A stretch of 64,000 bases of DNA, taken from the IMG/VR virus record IMGVR_UViG_3300025601_000007; one strand, 5' to 3'. Positions 7,056 through 44,186 of the stretch are shown here, one piece after another; positions within the stretch are counted from its first letter, which is position 1, and each line of letters begins with the position of its first letter. This stretch comes from a virus. Its lineage: Duplodnaviria; Caudoviricetes. Under the pieces are notes generated by a model that worked only from the letters and a program-made list of their open reading frames with translations, did no database searches and had not been told where the DNA came from. The position numbers and the translations under genes were made by a program.

Positions 7056-7892
7056 ATGATAATCTACAAAACAACGAACGTAATAAATAAAAAAATCTAC
7101 ATAGGGCAAGACTCAAATGACAATCCTAAATATTTAGGGTCGGGGTTACTTCTTCATAAAGCGATTAAGAAATATGGAAAAGATAATTTTAAAAAGGAAG
7201 TGCTAGAGGTTTGTTCCGACAGAAAGTGTTTAAATAAGCAGGAAATATATTGGATTAAATTTTATAAAGCGACTGACAAGGAAATTGGATACAATATATC
7301 TGAAGGCGGAACTGGTGGTAAATTAGTTCTTGTTGAGGGTAAAAAAGGTAAAACTTATGAAGAATACTATGGAGAGAAGAAAGCGAAAGAGCTAAAGGCT
7401 CTTTTTTCTAAAATTAGAAAAGGAAAAAAAAGAAAATACGTCAATATAACAGCTGAGGAAGTAGGTAAAAAGGTAGGCAAAGCATTAAAAGGGAGAAAAG
7501 TATCCAATGAATGTAAGGGTAAAATTAGTAATACGCTAAAGAAGTATTTTCAAACAGAAAAAGGGATTAAATCAAGAAAAAGCATTAGCGGATTTCACAC
7601 TGGAAGAAAACATAGTGAAGAAAGTAATAAAAAAAGAAGTGACGCCATGAAAGGGAGACGGCCAAAAATAATGGACATTCACCCCAGTGCTCGATATTGG
7701 TTTTTTTATGACAATAAAAATAAACTAATTTTCGAAACACTTGGAGATAAAAAGCATGCCTTAGAAAAGCTAAAAACAAATCAAAGAAAATTAGTGACTT
7801 TTGATAATTTGAACGATTGCTTAAATTATAAATTAGAAGACAGTAAGCATTTTAAAGTTTTTTATAAAAAGTATTATAAAAAGAAAACCTAA
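7056..7892 (+). CDS. GIY-YIG homing endonuclease with NUMOD3-like C-terminal motifs
   Basis: MIIYKTTN..NKKIYIGQ, YLGSG, GYNISEGG, GRKHSEESNKKRSDAMKG. Confidence 0.9.
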   Translation: MIIYKTTNVINKKIYIGQDSNDNPKYLGSGLLLHKAIKKYGKDNFKKEVLEVCSDRKCLNKQEIYWIKFYKATDKEIGYNISEGGTGGKLVLVEGKKGKTYEEYYGEKKAKELKALFSKIRKGKKRKYVNITAEEVGKKVGKALKGRKVSNECKGKISNTLKKYFQTEKGIKSRKSISGFHTGRKHSEESNKKRSDAMKGRRPKIMDIHPSARYWFFYDNKNKLIFETLGDKKHALEKLKTNQRKLVTFDNLNDCLNYKLEDSKHFKVFYKKYYKKKT

Positions 7893-12251: not shown

Positions 12252-14069
12252 ATGAGCGGACTTATTTCCGATTACCAAGATAAATATATCATTTCCGAGT
12301 ACTATACATTTAATGCTCCAACCCGTGAAATGATTATAGAGGCTGAAAAAAAATATCAGCCTATCGTGATGTCTGGAATTCTTCAGATAGCAGATACGTT
12401 AAATAAAAACGGTCGAATTTACCCATACGAAATTTTAAAGCGCGAGGCTGATAAGTACATGGAGCTCGTAAAGGAAAACGTGGCTGGTGGTGAACTTGAC
12501 CATCCTGATTGCAACTCATTAGACACTAGCATTTTAACCATTAACGGCTGGAAGAAGCTAATAGATATTGCAGAAGATGAGTTTATATATACTTTAAATC
12601 AGGAAACTAATAAAATTGAGGCTCATAAGATTGATAAAAAAATCTTAGAACCCTATAGTGGTAAGATGTATCACTTTAAGGGTAAAGGAATTGATTTGAT
12701 GGTTACTCCAAATCATAGATTTATACTTGAGACATCTGATGGGGTATCTTTTGAGAAGACAGCATCTGAGCTGTCTGAGTATAGAAGCGGAAAGTGGAGA
12801 ATTCCTAAAAAAGGAAATTGGGATGGAATTAATTACGATTCCTATATAATCCCTGGAATCGAAGAGTTTAAACCACACATAAGCAATGAGCTTAAGGATA
12901 AATATTCTCAAAACCTTGTTGTTAATGCAAAAGCGTGGTTTGCTTTTTTAGGTTTGTATCTAGCTGATGGAACTTCTGCTGGAGTGTGTGGGAGCAAAGC
13001 AAAACACAACCTCGTTAAAATTACACAGAAGAAGTCTGAGAATTTTGAGGCAATTAGAAAAATATTTGATGATTTAGGGATAGAGTATAACGAACGTGTT
13101 TATAGAGATGGGAAAATAGATTTTCAAATTTACGATGCACGACTTAAGCAATATCTATTTCCTTTAGGGAATAGTTCTGAAAAATACATTCCAGAAGATA
13201 TAAAAGCAGCTAATTCAGAATTGCTGACTATTCTTTTTGAAAATTTTCACATGGGAGATGGAACATCTAAAACATCTTATCATAAAGACAAAGGATATGT
13301 GTGTAAAAAGATTTTTTCTACTTCAGAAAAGATGATTAAAGACTTTAGTGAGGTGCTGTTAAAAATAGGGCTCCACGGAAATATAACTCAAGAACAACCT
13401 GTAGATAGATATATAAATGATGTAGTCGTTCTTGAAAAAGAAGTGGTGATGTCAGATGGGGCTGTAGAGATGGTTAAAGAAGAAATTTTAAAACCAAGAT
13501 TGATTGAGGCTAAAAATAGTAAAACTAAATTCATCCTTAATGTTAGCACTACAGATTTTATTTACATGGATGAGAGATTTTTAAAAATCTCTCAAATCCA
13601 AAACCCGTTTGATAAAGTAGCTTGTGTCAGAGTTAAAAACGGAAATTTCTTTGTAATGCGTAATGGTAAATCCCATTGGACTGGAAACTCCGCAGTTGTA
13701 TCTCTCGCTAATGTTTCACACCGTGTTGTTGAGATGTGGTGGGAAGGAAAAGAATTATGGGGCCGAGTGCAAATTGCTGAAACAGATGCAGGCAACACGT
13801 TGAAGGGTCTTCTAAAAACTGGATTCAAATTAGGAATTTCTTCTCGTGGAGTAGGAAGTGTTAAGTCTCAGGGTGGACAAGACATTGTGCAAGATGATTT
13901 TGAACTAATCGCTTTTGATTATGTATCAAACCCATCAACCCCAGGGGCTTACCTTTTTAAAGAAGGTTATATGAGACCACTTAAAGGGGTTAAAGAAAAA
14001 GCTAAATCAATAGGAGAGCTTAACCGTTTACAACTTATTTCTCAGAAATCTTTCTGGCAATCAGCGTAA
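12252..14069 (+). CDS. prohead protease (T4 gp21-like) with intein
   Basis: NKNGRIYP, GELDHPD|intein|SAVVSLANVSH, LGISSRGVGS, FELIAFDYVSNPSTPGA. Lies upstream of the scaffold and capsid genes. Confidence 0.92.
   Translation: MSGLISDYQDKYIISEYYTFNAPTREMIIEAEKKYQPIVMSGILQIADTLNKNGRIYPYEILKREADKYMELVKENVAGGELDHPDCNSLDTSILTINGWKKLIDIAEDEFIYTLNQETNKIEAHKIDKKILEPYSGKMYHFKGKGIDLMVTPNHRFILETSDGVSFEKTASELSEYRSGKWRIPKKGNWDGINYDSYIIPGIEEFKPHISNELKDKYSQNLVVNAKAWFAFLGLYLADGTSAGVCGSKAKHNLVKITQKKSENFEAIRKIFDDLGIEYNERVYRDGKIDFQIYDARLKQYLFPLGNSSEKYIPEDIKAANSELLTILFENFHMGDGTSKTSYHKDKGYVCKKIFSTSEKMIKDFSEVLLKIGLHGNITQEQPVDRYINDVVVLEKEVVMSDGAVEMVKEEILKPRLIEAKNSKTKFILNVSTTDFIYMDERFLKISQIQNPFDKVACVRVKNGNFFVMRNGKSHWTGNSAVVSLANVSHRVVEMWWEGKELWGRVQIAETDAGNTLKGLLKTGFKLGISSRGVGSVKSQGGQDIVQDDFELIAFDYVSNPSTPGAYLFKEGYMRPLKGVKEKAKSIGELNRLQLISQKSFWQSA
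12510..13688 (+). mobile_element. intein with LAGLIDADG endonuclease in prohead protease
   Basis: HPD|CNSLDTSILT...HWTGN|S, 393 aa. Motifs FLGLYLADG and FHMGDG; penultimate Gly instead of His. Confidence 0.88.
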
Positions 14070-15547: not shown

Positions 15548-17194
15548 ATGAGCGAATTGCTAAGAAGTGGTAAGGTTGGAATGACAACATTCAAGAACCT
15601 TGCTGAACAACGCACAGCTATCGTGAAGAACTGGGATGACTCAGGTCTATTGGAAGGTTTGCGTGGTACACAGAAATCGAACGTAGCACAGCTTCTTGAG
15701 AATCAAGCACAGGCGATGCTTAACGAGGTAACACTCGATGCATCAGCTGGTCGTTTCGACACAGTTGCTTTCCCTATCGTAAGAAGGGTATTCTCTCGAC
15801 TACTTGCTAATGAGCTTGTATCTGTACAACCACTCGCACTTCCATCTGGACTACTGTTCTACATGGATGCTAGAGTTTCCTTTAACAATAGTGACAATAC
15901 ATTTAACAATGAAATCGGTAGAACTGCCGAAGTTGCTGGAGCATCTAAAACTGCACCAAAAAACACAGCCAACCAAAACGTAGGGCCTAATTTTGCTGAC
16001 ACTACTGCATACGAACGTTTTTACAACAATCACGGGTTTGACCTTTCCTTTGGAACGGGTGAAACTGTTACAGGTACGTTTCAAATAATTTCAGGTAGTT
16101 CGTTTGTAGGTGGTCTTTCTAATATAACGTTTGCATTGGACACTGGATTCGACGTGTCGAAGCAGCAATCGTCTGCAACATTACGTTATTCATCTACTAC
16201 GGAAATCTATTACTCTGCTGGTTCTTCGAACACGCTTGTAGTAGCAGCTGGTGGCTCAGTACCATTCTTTAGCCAAATTCAAACTTGGACAGAAGACCAG
16301 TACGCTGGAAACAATGCTGATGTGGTCCTTGACCTTCGTCCAGCAGGTGTTTACGGTTCTGACTTCGCAGTTGCCAACTTGAACTCAGGTGGAACTGAAT
16401 TCGGCGCAGCCGTGAGGTTCACCATCACTCCAGCTTACGAAATCTTCAACGACCTAGAGGCGAAAAGTGAGATGGCTGAAATCACAATCCGTTTCTCTTC
16501 TGTTACAGTTGACACTGTTACTAGAAAGTTGAGAGCACACTGGACTCCTGAGCTTGCTCAAGACCTTGAGGCTTACCACTCAATTGATGCAGAAGCTGAG
16601 CTTACAGCTCTTCTTTCTGAGCACGTTGCAGCGGAAATCGACAGAGAAATCATTATCGACCTTATTAACGGTGCGCCGTTTAAAGCTCGTTGGGATTACA
16701 ACGGATTGGCTAACAACGCCAACTTCTTTGGAACACAAAAAGATTGGAATCAAACTCTCATCACTCGTGTAAATGAGCTATCAGCTCAAATTCACAAGGC
16801 GACATTGAGAGGTGGTGCTAACTGGATTGTATGTTCTGCAGAGGCAGGTGCTATTTTCGATGACCTCGAATACTTCCACGTTGACGGTTCTGCTTCACCA
16901 GAAGCTGAAAAGTACAACTTGGGTGTTGAGAAAATCGGTAACTTGGCTAACAGATATGTTGTCTACAAAGACCCATATTTGCCAGCACAAATCGTTCTTC
17001 TAGGACACAAGGGTAACACCTTCTTGGAAGCAGGTTATATCTACGCGCCGTACATCCCTCTTCAATTGACGCAAACAATTTATGACCCGAACGACTTTAC
17101 ACCTCGTAAAGGTATCATGACTCGTTACGCCAAGAAGATGGTTAACAACCGTTTCTACGGAGTCGTATACGTTGACAATATCAACACTTACTAA
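15548..17194 (+). CDS. major capsid protein (T4 gp23-like)
   Basis: LLENQA, IVRRVFSRLLANELVSVQPL..PSGL, TRKLRAHWTPELAQDL, EIDREII, YAPYIPL, PRKGIMTRY. Confidence 0.96.
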   Translation: MSELLRSGKVGMTTFKNLAEQRTAIVKNWDDSGLLEGLRGTQKSNVAQLLENQAQAMLNEVTLDASAGRFDTVAFPIVRRVFSRLLANELVSVQPLALPSGLLFYMDARVSFNNSDNTFNNEIGRTAEVAGASKTAPKNTANQNVGPNFADTTAYERFYNNHGFDLSFGTGETVTGTFQIISGSSFVGGLSNITFALDTGFDVSKQQSSATLRYSSTTEIYYSAGSSNTLVVAAGGSVPFFSQIQTWTEDQYAGNNADVVLDLRPAGVYGSDFAVANLNSGGTEFGAAVRFTITPAYEIFNDLEAKSEMAEITIRFSSVTVDTVTRKLRAHWTPELAQDLEAYHSIDAEAELTALLSEHVAAEIDREIIIDLINGAPFKARWDYNGLANNANFFGTQKDWNQTLITRVNELSAQIHKATLRGGANWIVCSAEAGAIFDDLEYFHVDGSASPEAEKYNLGVEKIGNLANRYVVYKDPYLPAQIVLLGHKGNTFLEAGYIYAPYIPLQLTQTIYDPNDFTPRKGIMTRYAKKMVNNRFYGVVYVDNINTY

Positions 17195-17234
17195 TCTGCA
17201 AAGATTGGTTGGTTTGACCAACAATACCATAAAG

Positions 17235-17264
17235 AAGGGTTCCCAAAAGGGAGCCCTTTTTTTT
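17235..17264. terminator. intrinsic terminator after MCP
   Basis: AGGGTTCCC-aaaa-GGGAGCCCT-T run. Confidence 0.85.
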
Positions 17265-17266
17265 GC

Positions 17267-17668
17267 TTAAGCCTGTTCGTAATATCCTTCGATTTGTCTT
17301 TTTGCTCCTGCTCCAGCTGTGAAGTCATGCGTGTCTTGGAATACTCCGTCAACACATGCAACCAAATGGTCTGTTGCCAAGGCTGCAATTGTTCTTTTTG
17401 GCATTAATTCATTCTGTGGTGGCACTGGACGACGCATATTTGTCCATTTCCATCCATGCTCAGCCATATACTTATCGAGTACGTGGAACTGAACTCCACT
17501 ACCCTCATGCTTGGGGTCATCATCCAAGCTTAGTTTAAGCAGAACATCATGAACTTTTTGGTATGGCTCCTTAGTAACAATAGCTACAGCTCGATAAACA
17601 CAAGCTCCATCTGTGGGTTCGAAGCCAGCCTCGACTCGACCTCCATCATTTTGATTCCATTTCATCAT
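17267..17668 (-). CDS. hypothetical protein, possible papain-like/C39-type cysteine peptidase fold
   Basis: NDGGR...GACVYRAVA...DHLVACVDG gives a Cys/His pair spaced as in small phage C39-like proteins (recall, not searched). Confidence 0.55.
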   Translation of the reverse strand: MMKWNQNDGGRVEAGFEPTDGACVYRAVAIVTKEPYQKVHDVLLKLSLDDDPKHEGSGVQFHVLDKYMAEHGWKWTNMRRPVPPQNELMPKRTIAALATDHLVACVDGVFQDTHDFTAGAGAKRQIEGYYEQA

Positions 17669-17741
17669 AAACTAGTATTTAGATATGTAACGGGTTGTTT
17701 TTAATAGCATAACCAATATACGCAATAAACCAGAAAAAGTT

Positions 17742-17807
17742 TCAAGTTACATTTTGTTGTGTTGTCGTTTTTAGTCTCATATCAATTTTTGTTGTCTTTA
17801 GTCTCAT
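17742..17807 (-). pseudogene. truncated 12th array unit (MRLKTTKIDMRLKTTTQQNVT*)
   Basis: Two consecutive ATGAGACTAAA starts, then homology is lost. Confidence 0.7.
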
Positions 17808-18067
17808 GCCAATATAAGTCTTATTGTAGTCCAATCCCATTCAATCCAGGGGACAGGCCTAGCGGTCCCCTTGTGGATTTCAACGAACCAATCCCCAGGG
17901 AATCCATCAGGAAACCACACTTCATAAACCTCACCTGGCCTGTTTTGAAGACGCAACGCTACCAAATATGGGTACCGCTTCGTGGGTTCAAACCCACCAC
18001 GAATCAATGCGTCTTTGCATGCATCACTTGCATTACATGCATCTGTTTGTGCTGTTTTCAGTCTCAT
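17804..18067 (-). CDS. array unit 11, 87 aa, unknown function
   Basis: Paralog; ATGA overlap with neighbours. Confidence 0.85.
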   Translation of the reverse strand: MRLKTAQTDACNASDACKDALIRGGFEPTKRYPYLVALRLQNRPGEVYEVWFPDGFPGDWFVEIHKGTARPVPWIEWDWTTIRLILA

Positions 18068-18324
18068 ACCAAACTAAATATTATTGTATTGGTCCAATCC
18101 CAAGAAACAAAGCTGATGGTTTTGGGGCCAACAACGGTCCCTTTGTCGATTCGAACGAATCTATCCCCAAGGTATCCATAAGAATGGAAGTGCGCTCCAT
18201 AAACCACTTCACCTGGCTTATTTTGAAGCCGCAACTGCCACGGGCTGATAGTTTTAAACCCACCACGAATCAATTGTTCTTTGCATGCCTCTGTTGATGT
18301 CGTTTTTGCCGTTTTCAGTCTCAT
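18064..18324 (-). CDS. array unit 10, 86 aa
   Basis: Paralog; ATGA overlap. Confidence 0.85.
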   Translation of the reverse strand: MRLKTAKTTSTEACKEQLIRGGFKTISPWQLRLQNKPGEVVYGAHFHSYGYLGDRFVRIDKGTVVGPKTISFVSWDWTNTIIFSLV

Positions 18325-18584
18325 ACAAATATAAGTGTTATAGGATTAGAAGAATCCCATTCAATAAAGCCACGATGGTCTTTAGAGGCAAGCGTAACTA
18401 AAGACCCTTTATGGATTCGAACGAACCAATCACTGCGGTATCCATCAGGAGAGAGCCACACTTCATAAGCCTCACCTGACTTTTTTTCACCAAGCCACAA
18501 CCGCCAGAGGTGCCTTATCGAGGCTTCGAACCCACCACGAATCAATGCTTTTTGGCATGCATCTGTTGCTGTTTTTAGTCTCAT
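18321..18584 (-). CDS. array unit 9, 87 aa (start ATG 18584)
   Basis: MRLKT start overlaps the stop of unit 8. Confidence 0.85.
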   Translation of the reverse strand: MRLKTATDACQKALIRGGFEASIRHLWRLWLGEKKSGEAYEVWLSPDGYRSDWFVRIHKGSLVTLASKDHRGFIEWDSSNPITLIFV

Positions 18585-18847
18585 ACCAATATAAGTGTTA
18601 TTACATTGGTCCAATCCCAATCAACCCAACCATCGCTGATTTTGGGGCCAGCAACGGTTTCTTTGCGGATTCGAACGAACCAATCCCTTCGGTCTCCATC
18701 GTGAGGAAACCACACTTGATAAATCACTGGACCTGGCTTTTCTCCACCAAGTTGCAAAACCAAACACTGTGGGTTGTTCGCGTCTTCGAACCCGCCACGA
18801 AGCAATGTCTCTTGGCATGCGTTTGCTGTTGTCGTTTTCAGTCTCAT
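18581..18847 (-). CDS. array unit 8, 88 aa
   Basis: Paralog; ATGA overlap. Confidence 0.85.
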   Translation of the reverse strand: MRLKTTTANACQETLLRGGFEDANNPQCLVLQLGGEKPGPVIYQVWFPHDGDRRDWFVRIRKETVAGPKISDGWVDWDWTNVITLILV

Positions 18848-19122
18848 ATCAATTTAAGCCTTATTTCACTGGTCCAATCCCAATCAACCGAACTGTTGGA
18901 GGCAGGCCCAATGGTCCCTTTGTGGATTCGAAAAAATAAATACCAACGGTATCCATCGCGAGGGAACCACACATCATAAGCCTCACCTGGCTTGTCTCCT
19001 CCAAGACGCAACTCAAAAGCCCGCGAGCTGTACGTCGTGTCTTCGAACCCACCACGAATCAATGCCTCTTGGCATGCATCGCTTGCATCGCATGCATCTT
19101 TTGTTGTCGTTTTCAGTTTCAT
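18844..19122 (-). CDS. array unit 7, 92 aa
   Basis: Paralog; ATGA overlap. Confidence 0.85.
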   Translation of the reverse strand: MKLKTTTKDACDASDACQEALIRGGFEDTTYSSRAFELRLGGDKPGEAYDVWFPRDGYRWYLFFRIHKGTIGPASNSSVDWDWTSEIRLKLI

Positions 19123-19370
19123 ACCAATCTAAGTCTTATTGTACTGGTCCAATCCCAATCAACCCCGCTGATGGTTTTGGAGCCCCCAACGGTCCCCTTG
19201 TAGATTCGAACGAATCCGCTCCTACGGTATCCATCGCCAGGAAACCACGCTTCATAAACCTCACCTGATTTGTTTCCAAGACGCAACCGCCACATGTCCC
19301 CATTGTGTTTTTTGAACCCACGACGAATCAGTGCCTCTTGGCATGCATCTTTTGCCGTTTTTAGTTTCAT
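19119..19370 (-). CDS. array unit 6, 83 aa
   Basis: Paralog; ATGA overlap. Confidence 0.85.
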   Translation of the reverse strand: MKLKTAKDACQEALIRRGFKKHNGDMWRLRLGNKSGEVYEAWFPGDGYRRSGFVRIYKGTVGGSKTISGVDWDWTSTIRLRLV

Positions 19371-19636
19371 ACCAATATTAGGATTATTCTATTGGAAAAA
19401 TCCCAATCACCGTTGTCTTTGTAGCCAACAACAGTCCCTTTGTAGATTCGAACAAATTCACCCTCAAGGTATCCATCATTAGGGAACCACAAATCATAAA
19501 CCTCGCCTGGCTTGTCTCCTCCAAGACGCAACTCAAAAGCCTGCGAGCTGTACGTCGTGGTTTCACACCCACCACGAATCAATGCCTCTTTGCATGCATC
19601 TGTTGCGTCTTTTGTTTGTGCCGTTTTCAGTTTCAT
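19367..19636 (-). CDS. array unit 5, 89 aa
   Basis: Paralog; ATGA overlap. Confidence 0.85.
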   Translation of the reverse strand: MKLKTAQTKDATDACKEALIRGGCETTTYSSQAFELRLGGDKPGEVYDLWFPNDGYLEGEFVRIYKGTVVGYKDNGDWDFSNRIILILV

Positions 19637-19899
19637 ACCAATCTAAGTATTATTGTGTTGGTCCAATCCCAATTACCCAAACCGTTGGGGGCAGGCCAAA
19701 TGGTCCCTTTGTGGATTGTAACAAACAAATCCCAACGGTATCCATCAGGAGGGAACAACGCTTCACAAACCTCGCCTGGCTTGTCTCCTCCAAGACGCAA
19801 CAGACGCACGCTGTACGTCACGTTTTCAAACCCACCACGAAGCAATACCTCTTTGCATGCGTCTGTTGCGTCTTTTGTTTGTGCCGTTTTCAGTTTCAT
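19633..19899 (-). CDS. array unit 4, 88 aa
   Basis: Paralog; ATGA overlap. Confidence 0.85.
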   Translation of the reverse strand: MKLKTAQTKDATDACKEVLLRGGFENVTYSVRLLRLGGDKPGEVCEALFPPDGYRWDLFVTIHKGTIWPAPNGLGNWDWTNTIILRLV

Positions 19900-20171
19900 A
19901 CCAATCTAAGTATTATTTTGTTGGTCCTATCCCAAAAAACAAAGCCAATGCTGGTTTTGGAGGCAGCGGTCCCTTTGTAAATTCGAACAAATTCACCCTC
20001 AAGGTGTCCATCACAATAGAACCACACATCATAAACCTCGCCTGGCTTGTCTCCTCCAAGATGCAGCCCCTCTGTGCTGTTCGTCATGGTTTCACACCCA
20101 CCACGAATCAGTGCCTCTTTGCATGCATCTGTTGCATCTTTTGCATTTGTTTTTTCTGTTTTTAGTCTCAT
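19896..20171 (-). CDS. array unit 3, 91 aa (start ATG 20171)
   Basis: MRLKT start overlaps the stop of unit 2. Confidence 0.85.
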   Translation of the reverse strand: MRLKTEKTNAKDATDACKEALIRGGCETMTNSTEGLHLGGDKPGEVYDVWFYCDGHLEGEFVRIYKGTAASKTSIGFVFWDRTNKIILRLV

Positions 20172-20410
20172 ACAAATGTAAGTATTATTGTACTGGAAGA
20201 ATCCCAATCACCGTTGTCTTTGTAGCCAACAACAGTCCCTTTGGTGATTCGAACGAACCAATCCCAACGGTATCCACGAGGGAACCACACATCATAAACC
20301 TCACCTGGCTTGTCTCCTCCAAGACTCAACCACTGCGAGCTGTACTTGGTTTTAAACCCACTACGAATCAATTGTTCTTTGCATGCATCTTTTGCCGTTT
20401 TCAGTCTCAT
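20168..20410 (-). CDS. array unit 2, 80 aa
   Basis: Paralog; ATGA overlap. Confidence 0.85.
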   Translation of the reverse strand: MRLKTAKDACKEQLIRSGFKTKYSSQWLSLGGDKPGEVYDVWFPRGYRWDWFVRITKGTVVGYKDNGDWDSSSTIILTFV

Positions 20411-20667
20411 ACCAATCTAAGTTTTATTGTGTTGGTCCAATCCCAATCATACCAACCGATGCTGTTTTTGGGGCCAGCAGTCCCTTTGTCGATTTCAACA
20501 GACCAATCACTGGGGTATCCATCATTAGGGAACCACGCATCATAAACCACTTCACCTGGCTTGTCTCCACCAAGACGCAAAACCTGCGAGCTGTACTTAT
20601 CGTCTTTGAACCCACGACGAAGCAATTGCTTTTTGCATGCATCTGTTTGTGCCGTTTTCAGTTTCAT
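20407..20667 (-). CDS. array unit 1, 86 aa
   Basis: First complete paralog. It is preceded by a DWTNTIILKLV* remnant (20664-20699) and a CGTATATT motif (20724-20731). Confidence 0.85.
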   Translation of the reverse strand: MKLKTAQTDACKKQLLRRGFKDDKYSSQVLRLGGDKPGEVVYDAWFPNDGYPSDWSVEIDKGTAGPKNSIGWYDWDWTNTIKLRLV

Positions 20668-20753
20668 ACCAATTTAAGTATTATTGTATTGGTCCAATCC
20701 AAACATCGCTGTGTTTATGAAAAAATATACGTTAATTTTCAATAAGGGTTACA

Positions 20754-21950
20754 TTAGTAACTAACGGGAAAAGGAATCACATCGTGAATCTTCTCCGCTT
20801 TCGTCAAGAACATAACCAGGCGCTCAAATCCCATTCCGAACCCAGCATGTGGAACCGTCCCCCATTTACGAGTGTCTAGATACCATTGCATAGATTTTGA
20901 ATCCACGCCAGCTTCTTCCATTTGAGTTTTTAGCGTATCGTGGTCCTCTTCTCGAACAGAGCCTCCAATCAACTCTCCAACTTCTGGGAACACCAGGTCA
21001 AAACAAATTGCCTTTCCACCTTCTCTCTTCATATAAAATGGTTTGAGGTCCTGTGGCCAGTGAGTGATAAACACAGGGCCTTTGTGGTGCGCAACTATTT
21101 CACGCTCTAGTTCAGTTCCTACATCTTCTCCATATGACAAACCAAACTCATCACATACTTCTTGATATGTTATTCGAGAATACCTGGCACCAACCTCAGA
21201 TTTAAGTGATTCCAAGGTTACTCCCAACTCTTTTTGATGGCCACTTTTACCAAGTGAAACAGCCACTTTGGCAATTGTCATTCTCAGCATAGACTCGGCA
21301 AAATCCATTATTTGCTCTAAGTCATAATGAGCCAGCTCAGGTTCAATCATCCAGAACTCAGACAAATGCTTTCTGGTTGATGATTTTTCAGCTCGAAAAC
21401 ATGGACCAAAAGTGTAGATTTTCCCCAACGCCATCATACCAACTTCTCCATGAAGCTGACCCGAAACCGTTAAATGTCGTTTGAGCCATTCTGATTCGGC
21501 TGAAAACTGTTCTCCAGCACCCTCACAATCTGAGCTGGTCATAATCGGTGTGTGATATTGAGATACTGACTCCTCATGCATAAACGAGTGTAATGCAAAG
21601 CTTGTTTCGCTTCGTGCGTGCATAATAGCGCACATGCGTCGGTCTCGCCCTCGTGTCTGAGGAATCGTTCTAAGAAAGCTTGAAGAGTGAAATTTAGGCT
21701 GAACTGGGTAATCTTCTCCAGACTCGCCAAGAACCTCAATTGAAGTTGCTTTGAATTCATAATCTCCCCTGGGGGTTCTCCCATCTTCACCCTGCATTTG
21801 AATAGACGCTCCAGCAGATAACCCTAGGGAGACTTCGCAGTCTGAGTGTTTTATTGTTACTTGAAATTCCTCTTGCCCGTCCGTGACGGCTAAGAATGTT
21901 AATGCTTTGGATTTACGCACGGAACGAATCCATCCTTGTCTTGTTTTCAT
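20754..21950 (-). CDS. asnS: asparaginyl-tRNA synthetase
   Basis: OB-fold start GWIRSVR, HTPI.TSSDCEGAGEQF, LTVSGQLH, FGPCFRAE.S.TRKHLSEFWMIEPE, ELIGGSVRE, PHAGFGMGFER. Confidence 0.93.
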   Translation of the reverse strand: MKTRQGWIRSVRKSKALTFLAVTDGQEEFQVTIKHSDCEVSLGLSAGASIQMQGEDGRTPRGDYEFKATSIEVLGESGEDYPVQPKFHSSSFLRTIPQTRGRDRRMCAIMHARSETSFALHSFMHEESVSQYHTPIMTSSDCEGAGEQFSAESEWLKRHLTVSGQLHGEVGMMALGKIYTFGPCFRAEKSSTRKHLSEFWMIEPELAHYDLEQIMDFAESMLRMTIAKVAVSLGKSGHQKELGVTLESLKSEVGARYSRITYQEVCDEFGLSYGEDVGTELEREIVAHHKGPVFITHWPQDLKPFYMKREGGKAICFDLVFPEVGELIGGSVREEDHDTLKTQMEEAGVDSKSMQWYLDTRKWGTVPHAGFGMGFERLVMFLTKAEKIHDVIPFPVSY

Positions 21951-43984: not shown

Positions 43985-44186
43985 CTTGTCAATCAACGTC
44001 GGTATGATTATGTTGATGAATGACAACACGAGCTCCAAACTGGGATTACAACGGCTATCCAACAATAAATTTAAGTAGTCTCACGACAGGCTAAACAGCT
44101 GTTAATTAGTATAATTAACCCTTCAATCCTCATAGATTCAATGAATTAGTTTTAAACTAAAGTTGGATTATAACTTAAAATTGAAT

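Follow-up and report, generated by a model that had tools for sequence, protein, structure and literature searches.

Gene families that are diversified by gene conversion are well known from cells, examples being the surface antigens of parasites and the silent pilin cassettes of Neisseria. Lineage-specific expansions have been described in jumbo phages and giant viruses, including the ~35 zinc-ribbon copies of Bacillus phage G (Iyer et al. 2021, PMC7824862), and phage genes can also be multiplied by 'genomic accordion' events, as in the tandem amplification of the counter-defence gene tifA by T4 in response to toxIN (bioRxiv 10.1101/2022.04.14.488369) and the SegB-driven amplification in T6 (PMC13096335). 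Although lineage-specific expansions are known in very large phages, their natural dynamics are rarely visible. Here we describe a locus on the minus strand of a 64,000-nucleotide stretch of tailed-phage DNA (IMG/VR record IMGVR_UViG_3300025601_000007; the whole stretch is hereafter denoted the window), at which eleven small open reading frames (ORFs) lie head-to-tail between positions 17742 and 20706 (array A). We interpret the locus as part of a lineage-specific multigene family, diversified by recombination, the products of which would be small soluble binding proteins made from non-late, translationally coupled operons. The descriptive half of this interpretation, taken alone, is very probable; for the interpretation as a whole, including the proposed function, we consider the chances to be about even.

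In the jumbo-phage expansions, as in the array, a very large viral genome carries tens of copies of one small domain, which relatives lack and which is presumed to have a role in conflict with the host. The array differs from them in its strictly head-to-tail order with ATGA overlaps, its division over two arrays, the fine mosaicism of its members, the variation of copy number and content between strains with identical flanks, and the lack of a recognisable fold relative. Accordions also change copy number by recombination between repeats, in T4-like phages, with variation at one locus and a clonal remainder of the genome; their copies, however, are near-identical, recent and readily collapse, whereas the units of the array are 73-80% identical and long diverged (synonymous divergence, dS, ~0.33). 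Copy-number polymorphism between otherwise identical genomes is present, and near-identity of the copies absent; the age and divergence of the units point to a standing diversified repertoire rather than to a dosage response. There is also a parallel in pattern with the gene-conversion families, which share a conserved scaffold, variable segments, short-tract mosaicism, exchange between arrays, and a ratio of non-synonymous to synonymous divergence (dN/dS) of at least 1 in the variable parts; those families are cellular and express one copy from an expression site, whereas the units described here are viral and appear to be co-translated. New relative to the known expansions and amplifications are the absence of a recognisable relative, the old and diverse copies, the mosaics exchanging between two arrays, and the different sets carried by strains with clonal flanks.

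Organisation of the array

An original prediction, made by a model from the sequence of the window, had described eleven head-to-tail ORFs on the minus strand, and this description is borne out: the units span 17804-20667 and encode proteins of 80-92 amino acids. In order of translation these are unit 1 (20407-20667; 86 amino acids), unit 2 (20168-20410; 80), unit 3 (19896-20171; 91), unit 4 (19633-19899; 88; the unit modelled with AlphaFold2), unit 5 (19367-19636; 89), unit 6 (19119-19370; 83), unit 7 (18844-19122; 92), unit 8 (18581-18847; 88), unit 9 (18321-18584; 87), unit 10 (18064-18324; 86) and unit 11 (17804-18067; 87). Units 1-5 and 8-11 were assigned as ORFs matching the family profile (E 8e-43 for unit 1), whilst units 6 and 7 are further characterised by strain comparison (see below). 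Alignment of the eleven window proteins contains 18 invariant columns, with a mean column identity of 62%, which substantiates the shared sequence anchors reported for them.

All ten internal junctions of the array consist of a 4-nt ATGA overlap of stop and start codons. The sequence GTATGA, which had been given as common to the junctions, is found at nine of the eleven unit ends, the remaining two reading ATATGA and GCATGA, such that the overlap holds throughout and the exact hexanucleotide does not. The junction-start motif TATGARACTRAARAC is present in 13 copies, all of them on the minus strand and within 17767-20668, compared with a chance expectation of 0.16. Integron gene cassettes were considered as a model for this arrangement and set aside: the 4-nt overlaps leave no intergenic room, the junction is coding, and no inverted repeat was noted.

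The units of the array are real coding genes. The named frame is free of stop codons in all 33 units examined (11 in the window and 22 in the second array described below; ~2,900 codons), in agreement with the earlier claim for the eleven window units, and the two other sense frames contain 4-6 stops per unit, with totals of 150 and 207 over the 33 units. Length differences among intact units are all in frame.

Both ends of the array are formed by remnants of units, as had been proposed. Before unit 1, the segment 20664-20699 (minus strand) encodes a unit C-terminus, DWTNTIILKLV*, and represents junction repeat number 1. After unit 11, a 21-codon ORF, MRLKTTKIDMRLKTTTQQNVT* (17742-17807, minus strand), comprises two truncated unit starts, each with the sequence MRLKT. 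Read in another frame, the remnant at the 5′ side (the last 11 codons of a unit) gives a 10-codon upstream ORF, MFGLDQYNNT* (20674-20706, minus strand), which stops 6 nt short of the unit 1 ATG.

Variation between strains

Strain forms were compared as metagenome contigs, the flanks of which are 99.9-100% identical over ~9.7 kb. The window form of eleven units is also present in 208-kb contigs holding an identical array (L001). In L003 the array again has eleven units, with a chimeric unit 6; this unit is replaced in L004, L005 and L023. Two extra units precede unit 1 in L024, giving 13 units, and the second of these is visible up to the contig end in L002. L023 has 10 units, with the extra units and three different units in place of units 1-6; contigs L025-L027, obtained independently by sample and by assembler, show the start of this arrangement. 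No form of array A departs from the others in units 7-11, unit 7 being the first of this strain-constant 3′ block. These near-identical strains support the suggestion in the original prediction that the array gains and loses units by recombination, and comparison across them, with arrays of 10, 11 or 13 units, shows that the array is not identical throughout. The 5′ remnant also lies before the first unit of the 13-unit form, which indicates that the window form is the 13-unit array minus two units, lost between junction repeats, the deletion mapping to those repeats. We thus have one phage, sampled many times from one lake, in which a single locus changes by whole genes and the rest of the genome is clonal.

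The best DNA identity between units within the window array is 73-79%, and exact matches between two of them extend to at most 44 nt, with a median of 18 nt; matches this short make collapse during assembly unlikely and mean that recombination works on short patches. Logan contigs matched to the array gave fragmented pieces and a few branch joints, lending weak support to the coexistence of variants. In one run (X19), a contig joins 19601 to 20654, skipping 1052 nt, and the same run also holds contigs with the window arrangement; this joint suggests variants coexisting in one sample.

A second array and the extent of the family

A second array of the same family (array B; L007:4742-10530, L012:4639-10530 and L010:35-2904) was located by family-profile and contig comparison. 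It follows a YqeY-domain gene and is surrounded by small early-type genes; a sigma-factor gene is close by. The ends of array B resemble those of array A, with a C-terminal remnant directly after the YqeY stop codon and, at the opposite end, a truncated N-terminal ORF. Array B comprises 22 units in L007, L011 and L012, and 11 in L010; the flanks of L010 and L007 are 99.98% identical over 9.7 kb, and only the last two units and one other are shared between the two forms. One array B unit of L010 has 93.6% DNA identity to unit 1 of array A, compared with 73-80% for ordinary pairs of units, from which it follows that units move between the arrays. Protein clusters from both arrays share one contig of 446,956 bp as the longest listed, and probably one genome carries both. 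Just upstream of the sigma-factor gene near array B, 67 nt (L007:16333-16399) are 78% identical, on the opposite strand, to the inside of an array A unit (44039-44105 in the coordinates of the 92-kb viral record of which the window is part; E 3.5e-8); this stretch may be a displaced piece of a unit.

Searched with the family profile, 5.8 billion proteins yielded 75 clusters at 90% identity, all unnamed, and an exhaustive HMMER search of 1.84 billion representatives returned 16 clusters (at 50% identity) belonging to the family in whole or in part. Pattern scans of other viral contigs and of 185,579 species genomes gave no relative, and a DNA search of a phage collection gave no match to the array. 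Scans of the units against Pfam, PHROGs, NCBIfam and PADLOC assigned no family, the family profile had no match among PDB sequences at E 10, and an ESM Atlas feature search with the units returned nothing usable. The original prediction had not recognised the family, and HMM searches in every library tried likewise produced none.

Relatives that lack the array

Array A is located between two other minus-strand genes, all three opposite in orientation to the structural genes. The upstream neighbour (20754-21950) encodes a class II aminoacyl-tRNA synthetase of the Asn/Asp type (asnS; PF00152 at 2e-63, and PF01336), and the downstream neighbour (17267-17668) a 133-residue protein with a papain-like fold, assigned from its AlphaFold2 model, fold matches and relatives; both are outside the family. 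Two related phages, L028 and L030, were found through homologues of the 133-residue protein, which is 80-84% identical in them. In L030 a gap of 34 nt separates the synthetase gene (72% identical) from the gene for the 133-residue protein (84% identical), which comes next. In L028 the capsid protein is 89% identical, and the synthetase is absent too. Six-frame searches of the L028 and L030 loci found no family member, though gene order is kept. The array is therefore a recent gain of the lake lineage, and its presence does not depend on the capsid gene, on asnS or on the gene for the 133-residue protein. The adjacency to the major capsid gene pointed out in the original prediction does exist, and is incidental, because relatives with the same gene order do without the array. 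Functional coupling of the array to asnS or to the 133-residue protein was set aside for the same reason, both genes occurring in relatives that lack it.

Mosaicism and selection

The original prediction had divided the units into a conserved scaffold and three hypervariable segments (V1, V2 and V3), each said to differ in every copy. This proved wrong in two respects. Segment variants recur in different combinations (for example, W5 has the V1 of W7, the V2 of W3 and the V3 of W2), and variation extends beyond the three segments, to the N-terminal linker and to alternate positions of the last strands. Incompatibility with a single tree is found for 70% of informative site pairs, and the association of sites with one another drops from 0.37 for sites 1-3 nt apart to 0.26 for those 13-24 nt apart, being largely lost beyond 12-24 nt. 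A PHI-type recombination test was not significant (p 0.70); since incompatibility is uniformly high at all distances, this test was replaced by the analysis of decay with distance. The maximum-likelihood tree is star-like, with three of 30 inner branches well supported, and the units of arrays A and B intermix in it as much as shuffled labels do; distances between units of different arrays equal those within arrays. As judged from these patterns, the units are fine-grained mosaics of one another, and V1-V3 are shuffled alleles.

Over the 33 units, dS is 0.33 and dN 0.29, giving an omega (dN/dS) of 0.87, and nucleotide diversity is flat over the three codon positions (0.247, 0.254 and 0.230). 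Where a comparison of dN/dS between segments had been proposed, dN/dS was compared between column classes defined in one array and measured in the other: by simple counting, omega is 0.17-0.20 (~0.2) in the conserved columns, ~1.0 in the middle class, and 1.24-1.78 in the variable columns (bootstrap intervals 0.87-1.81 and 1.03-2.76). By these measures a core of ~26 positions is under purifying selection, and the other positions change at least as fast as expected under neutrality; the family shows positive or relaxed selection over most of its surface. Synonymous codons are almost fixed at conserved residues, with CGT and ATA, for example, each used in 33/33 units.

An overall dN/dS near 1 and a flat diversity over codon positions are also what might be expected of a selfish or drifting tandem repeat without a function of its own, in which the frames stay open only to let ribosomes pass through the operon. 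The damaged units present in array B, and the absence of the array from close relatives without visible consequence, also fit such a repeat. Drift of this kind does not, however, account for the ~26 columns with an omega of ~0.2, among them residues that are fully invariant over 33 units, nor for the absence of stops from ~2,900 codons and the restriction of indels to those that keep the frame. Furthermore, no pair of units within an array exceeds ~80% DNA identity, unlike the products of a recent neutral amplification. We consequently regard a functionless repeat as highly doubtful.

Predicted fold and similarity to PepSY domains

The unit proteins (~87 amino acids) have no signal peptide and no hydrophobic or membrane segment. 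They are rich in tryptophan, with a median of four per unit, and their isoelectric points range from 4.8 to 10.2, corresponding to net charges from acidic to strongly basic. An AlphaFold2 model of unit 4, made with 58 family sequences (pLDDT 69), predicts a disordered tail (residues 1-10), the length of which varies between units through D-A-x repeats, followed by a helix (residues 11-21) and five antiparallel strands (residues 25-27, 30-36, 42-48, 58-68 and 76-86). In this model V1 links the helix to the first long strand, the conserved GGDKPGE sequence forms the first hairpin, and V2 and V3 form the second and third loops, respectively. Given a simple meander of strands, the sheet would have V1 and V2 at one of its ends and V3 at the opposite one. 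Fold searches with the model, using Foldseek (PDB, AlphaFold DB clusters, BFVD and Atlas) and VIA-align (48,161 chains), produced no match that rose above noise; the highest Z score was 4.7, and TM scores of 0.5-0.6 were reached only with generic helix-on-sheet proteins.

The exhaustive sequence search also gave eight sub-threshold matches. Four of these are PepSY proteins with several repeats (E 2.5e-7 to 6e-4 for the whole protein), the others being low-complexity, ricin and Kelch repeat matches. PepSY domains combine one helix with a four-stranded sheet, the fold of peptidase propeptides and inhibitors, and units of this type could form an array of peptidase inhibitors, directed at host proteases (e.g. 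defence-associated ones) or at the papain-like protein encoded downstream. The alignments are in register over the helix and three strands in every repeat; the predicted secondary structure of the units (one helix and five strands) is compatible with such a domain, and the two line up in size (a core of ~60 residues), in the succession of helix and strands, and at a few positions within motifs. Single repeats, however, score only 7-17 bits, the significance arising from the summing of repeats, and profile-profile comparison with hhalign gave a probability of 13.6% (P 0.002). None of 58 family members matches the Pfam PepSY profile (PF03413) even at E 10, four units compared with Pfam have no match at E 0.1, and no PepSY structure occurs among the Foldseek or VIA matches, the best of which has the Z of 4.7 given above. 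The similarity is thus below accepted thresholds, and the units have an extra C-terminal strand. PepSY proteins are, moreover, usually secreted or membrane-anchored, whereas the units lack a signal peptide, and the relatives keep the papain-like gene without the array. PepSY membership of the units is unproven, and we consider an array of peptidase inhibitors rather unlikely.

For the 133-residue protein itself the AlphaFold2 model is confident (pLDDT 89.6), and papain-like cysteine peptidases (the C39 domain of PCAT1 and ComA, Josephin, staphopain and PeiR) account for many of the top Foldseek matches, although these matches are all weak (E > 0.1). Cys23 is invariant, and the protein contains a D-H-L-V-A-C-V-D-G motif, as is typical of the papain-like fold; it matches phrog_3754.

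The fold matches to C39 peptidases, taken with an R-G-G motif present in about half of the units, raise the question of whether the units might be precursors of peptides cleaved after a double-glycine leader; alternatively, the concentration of variation in segments might reflect a dedicated mutator, i.e. a diversity-generating retroelement. The first glycine of the motif is, however, kept in only 45% of pairs, and many units have R, S, C or D in its place. No gene for an ABC transporter lies next to the array, relatives that lack the array also possess the papain-like neighbour, and cleavage would remove the helix, which belongs to the predicted fold. As for a mutator, no reverse transcriptase (RVT_1) was found in the 92-kb record, which is only part of the genome, and the many indels and whole-unit swaps are not products of retroelement mutagenesis. 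Both proposals are close to refuted.

Genomic context and expression signals

The window is part of a 92-kb viral record, judged 29% complete. The sequencing runs that hold the stretch are all salt-lake metagenomes, and the lake is presumably Ace Lake, Antarctica, which the JGI sample prefixes resemble. One of these prefixes, Ga0208769, denotes the metagenome from which a huge phage of ~528 kb, possibly the present one, has been reported (PMC7416419). The phage of the window is large and T4-like, with a gp23-type capsid gene (15548-17194, plus strand) and a gp21-type prohead protease in the window, and a gp13-like protein and a tail sheath gene called on near-identical loci. In the phage collection, the capsid protein comes closest to those of uncultured huge phages and of a Microcystis phage (31-46% identity).

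Shine-Dalgarno-like sites precede two of 33 window genes, and leaders are A-rich. A CTATTTA box is present ~15-20 nt before the start of several plus-strand structural genes (plus-strand sites include 3069, 12227, 26336, 37103 and 54413, among others) and is a candidate late promoter, although its total count (19, compared with 13.8 expected) is not above chance. No CTATTTA box occurs between 17 and 22 kb of the window, which, together with the position of the array on the strand opposite to the late genes, upholds the earlier view that it lies behind a non-late motif. A different box, CGTATATT, is found six times in the window, against 1.5 expected. One copy lies in the spacer between asnS and the array (20724-20731, minus strand), where it corresponds to the -10-like half of a promoter-like element and lacks a properly spaced TTGAAA; a second (17715-17722, minus strand) forms part of a TTGAAA-N19-TATATT element ahead of the gene for the 133-residue protein. 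The latter element precedes this gene both here (17715-17745, minus strand) and in the two relatives (~9950-10000 in L030 and ~9945-10000 in L028), and the copy before the array (spacer 20724-20745, minus strand) is truncated; from this, the promoter region appears to be duplicated on both sides of the array. A scan for sigma-70 promoters and terminators gave counts that match chance expectation.

These signals bear on whether the units could be virion proteins. The internal-protein loci of T4 are polymorphic, and the MRLKT N-terminus of the units, which is strictly conserved and followed by a disordered linker, might likewise act as a capsid-targeting tag, such that a variable mixture of proteins would be packed and injected with the DNA. 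A T4-like phage with a gp21-type prohead protease, and a capsid protein with an L-x-E site, would provide the setting for this. The 33-unit alignment, however, has no conserved (L/I)-x-E cleavage site after the N-terminus, array A is on the non-late strand without a late-type box, and array B lies among small early-type genes behind YqeY. The role of the junction in translational coupling, moreover, also explains the conserved N-terminus. A packaged mixture of this kind is, in our judgement, quite unlikely.

The gp38 adhesins of T-even phages have hypervariable segments between glycine-rich motifs, and the units, like gp38, have short conserved motifs (R-x-G, LGGDKPG and KGT) that could serve as recombination points between variable segments. 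Together with the abundance of tryptophan, this might indicate that the units are alternative receptor-binding tips or adhesins, giving mixed virions with a broad host range. No similarity of sequence or fold to gp38 or any fibre protein was detected, though, and the units are a third of the size of gp38, exist as tens of arrayed copies, and have the strand and promoter type of non-late genes; neither array is near tail-fibre genes. An adhesin role is very improbable.

A proposed model for the family

In the interpretation that we prefer, that of a recombining family of small binding proteins, the stretch would be one tandem array out of two that belong to a multigene family specific to this phage lineage, and the strain counts would give about 21-35 family genes per genome. 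The units of an array would be transcribed as one polycistronic, non-late message, and translation probably passes from unit to unit by termination and reinitiation at the ATGA overlaps; reinitiation is probable because the phage barely uses Shine-Dalgarno sites. The short upstream ORF of the leader, itself a remnant of a unit 3′-end, could feed ribosomes into unit 1. Strict ATGA coupling in the near absence of Shine-Dalgarno sites would also make the locus a useful case for the study of long operons expressed by reinitiation.

Sequence comparison shows that diversity is generated at two levels. Short-patch recombination or gene conversion acts between units, both within and between arrays, and unequal recombination at the conserved junctions of ~55 nt adds, removes or replaces whole units, with the result that natural strains with identical flanks carry different repertoires. 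The family may serve as a standing set of binding proteins directed at a variable partner, for which host defence or takeover targets are the most plausible candidates. The roles in anti-defence, in immunity or as capsid passengers that the original prediction put forward are conjectural. If the proteins do bind host defence or takeover targets, the arrays would represent a compact, naturally occurring library of binders built on a single small scaffold, and a clear example of a phage that keeps a repertoire rather than a single counter-measure.

A more specific proposal is that the two arrays act as a combinatorial protein library, in which segment alleles are re-dealt by short-patch gene conversion among about 20-35 co-expressed scaffold proteins, so that each lineage fields its own set of binders against a host target that is itself polymorphic. 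We put this forward tentatively, as a possible but doubtful extension of the model. If true, it would be a viral counterpart of the antigen-receptor and antigenic-variation families, with all members expressed at once via translational coupling.

Several points weigh against the preferred interpretation. The unit model is of middling confidence only (pLDDT 69), and the evidence that places both arrays in a single genome, the shared listing of the 446,956-bp contig, is indirect. The strain arrangements are those read from metagenome contigs, and there are no RNA runs among the runs that contain the stretch. One of the two omega intervals for the variable columns includes 1, and the dN/dS values derive from simple counting on recombining paralogues, in arrays that are not independent samples. 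Finally, array B contains damaged units, with an internal deletion (71 amino acids), an internal duplication (123 amino acids), and a frameshift (L007, ~7345-7646), which indicates that not every copy is maintained.

Other features of the two loci

Both arrays are directly downstream of a translation-linked gene, namely the Asn/Asp-type tRNA synthetase gene for array A and a YqeY/GatB-like gene (L007:4261-4707) for array B. This may be a coincidence; L030 has the synthetase without the array.

The prohead protease of the window (Peptidase_S77; 12252-14069, plus strand) has 605 residues, with a faint LAGLIDADG match in the middle of the protein. In L028 the protein has 212 residues (15966-16604), and in L023 it is split into parts of 468 and 131 residues (16113-17932). 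From the sequences, these differences look like a strain-variable intein or homing-endonuclease insertion.

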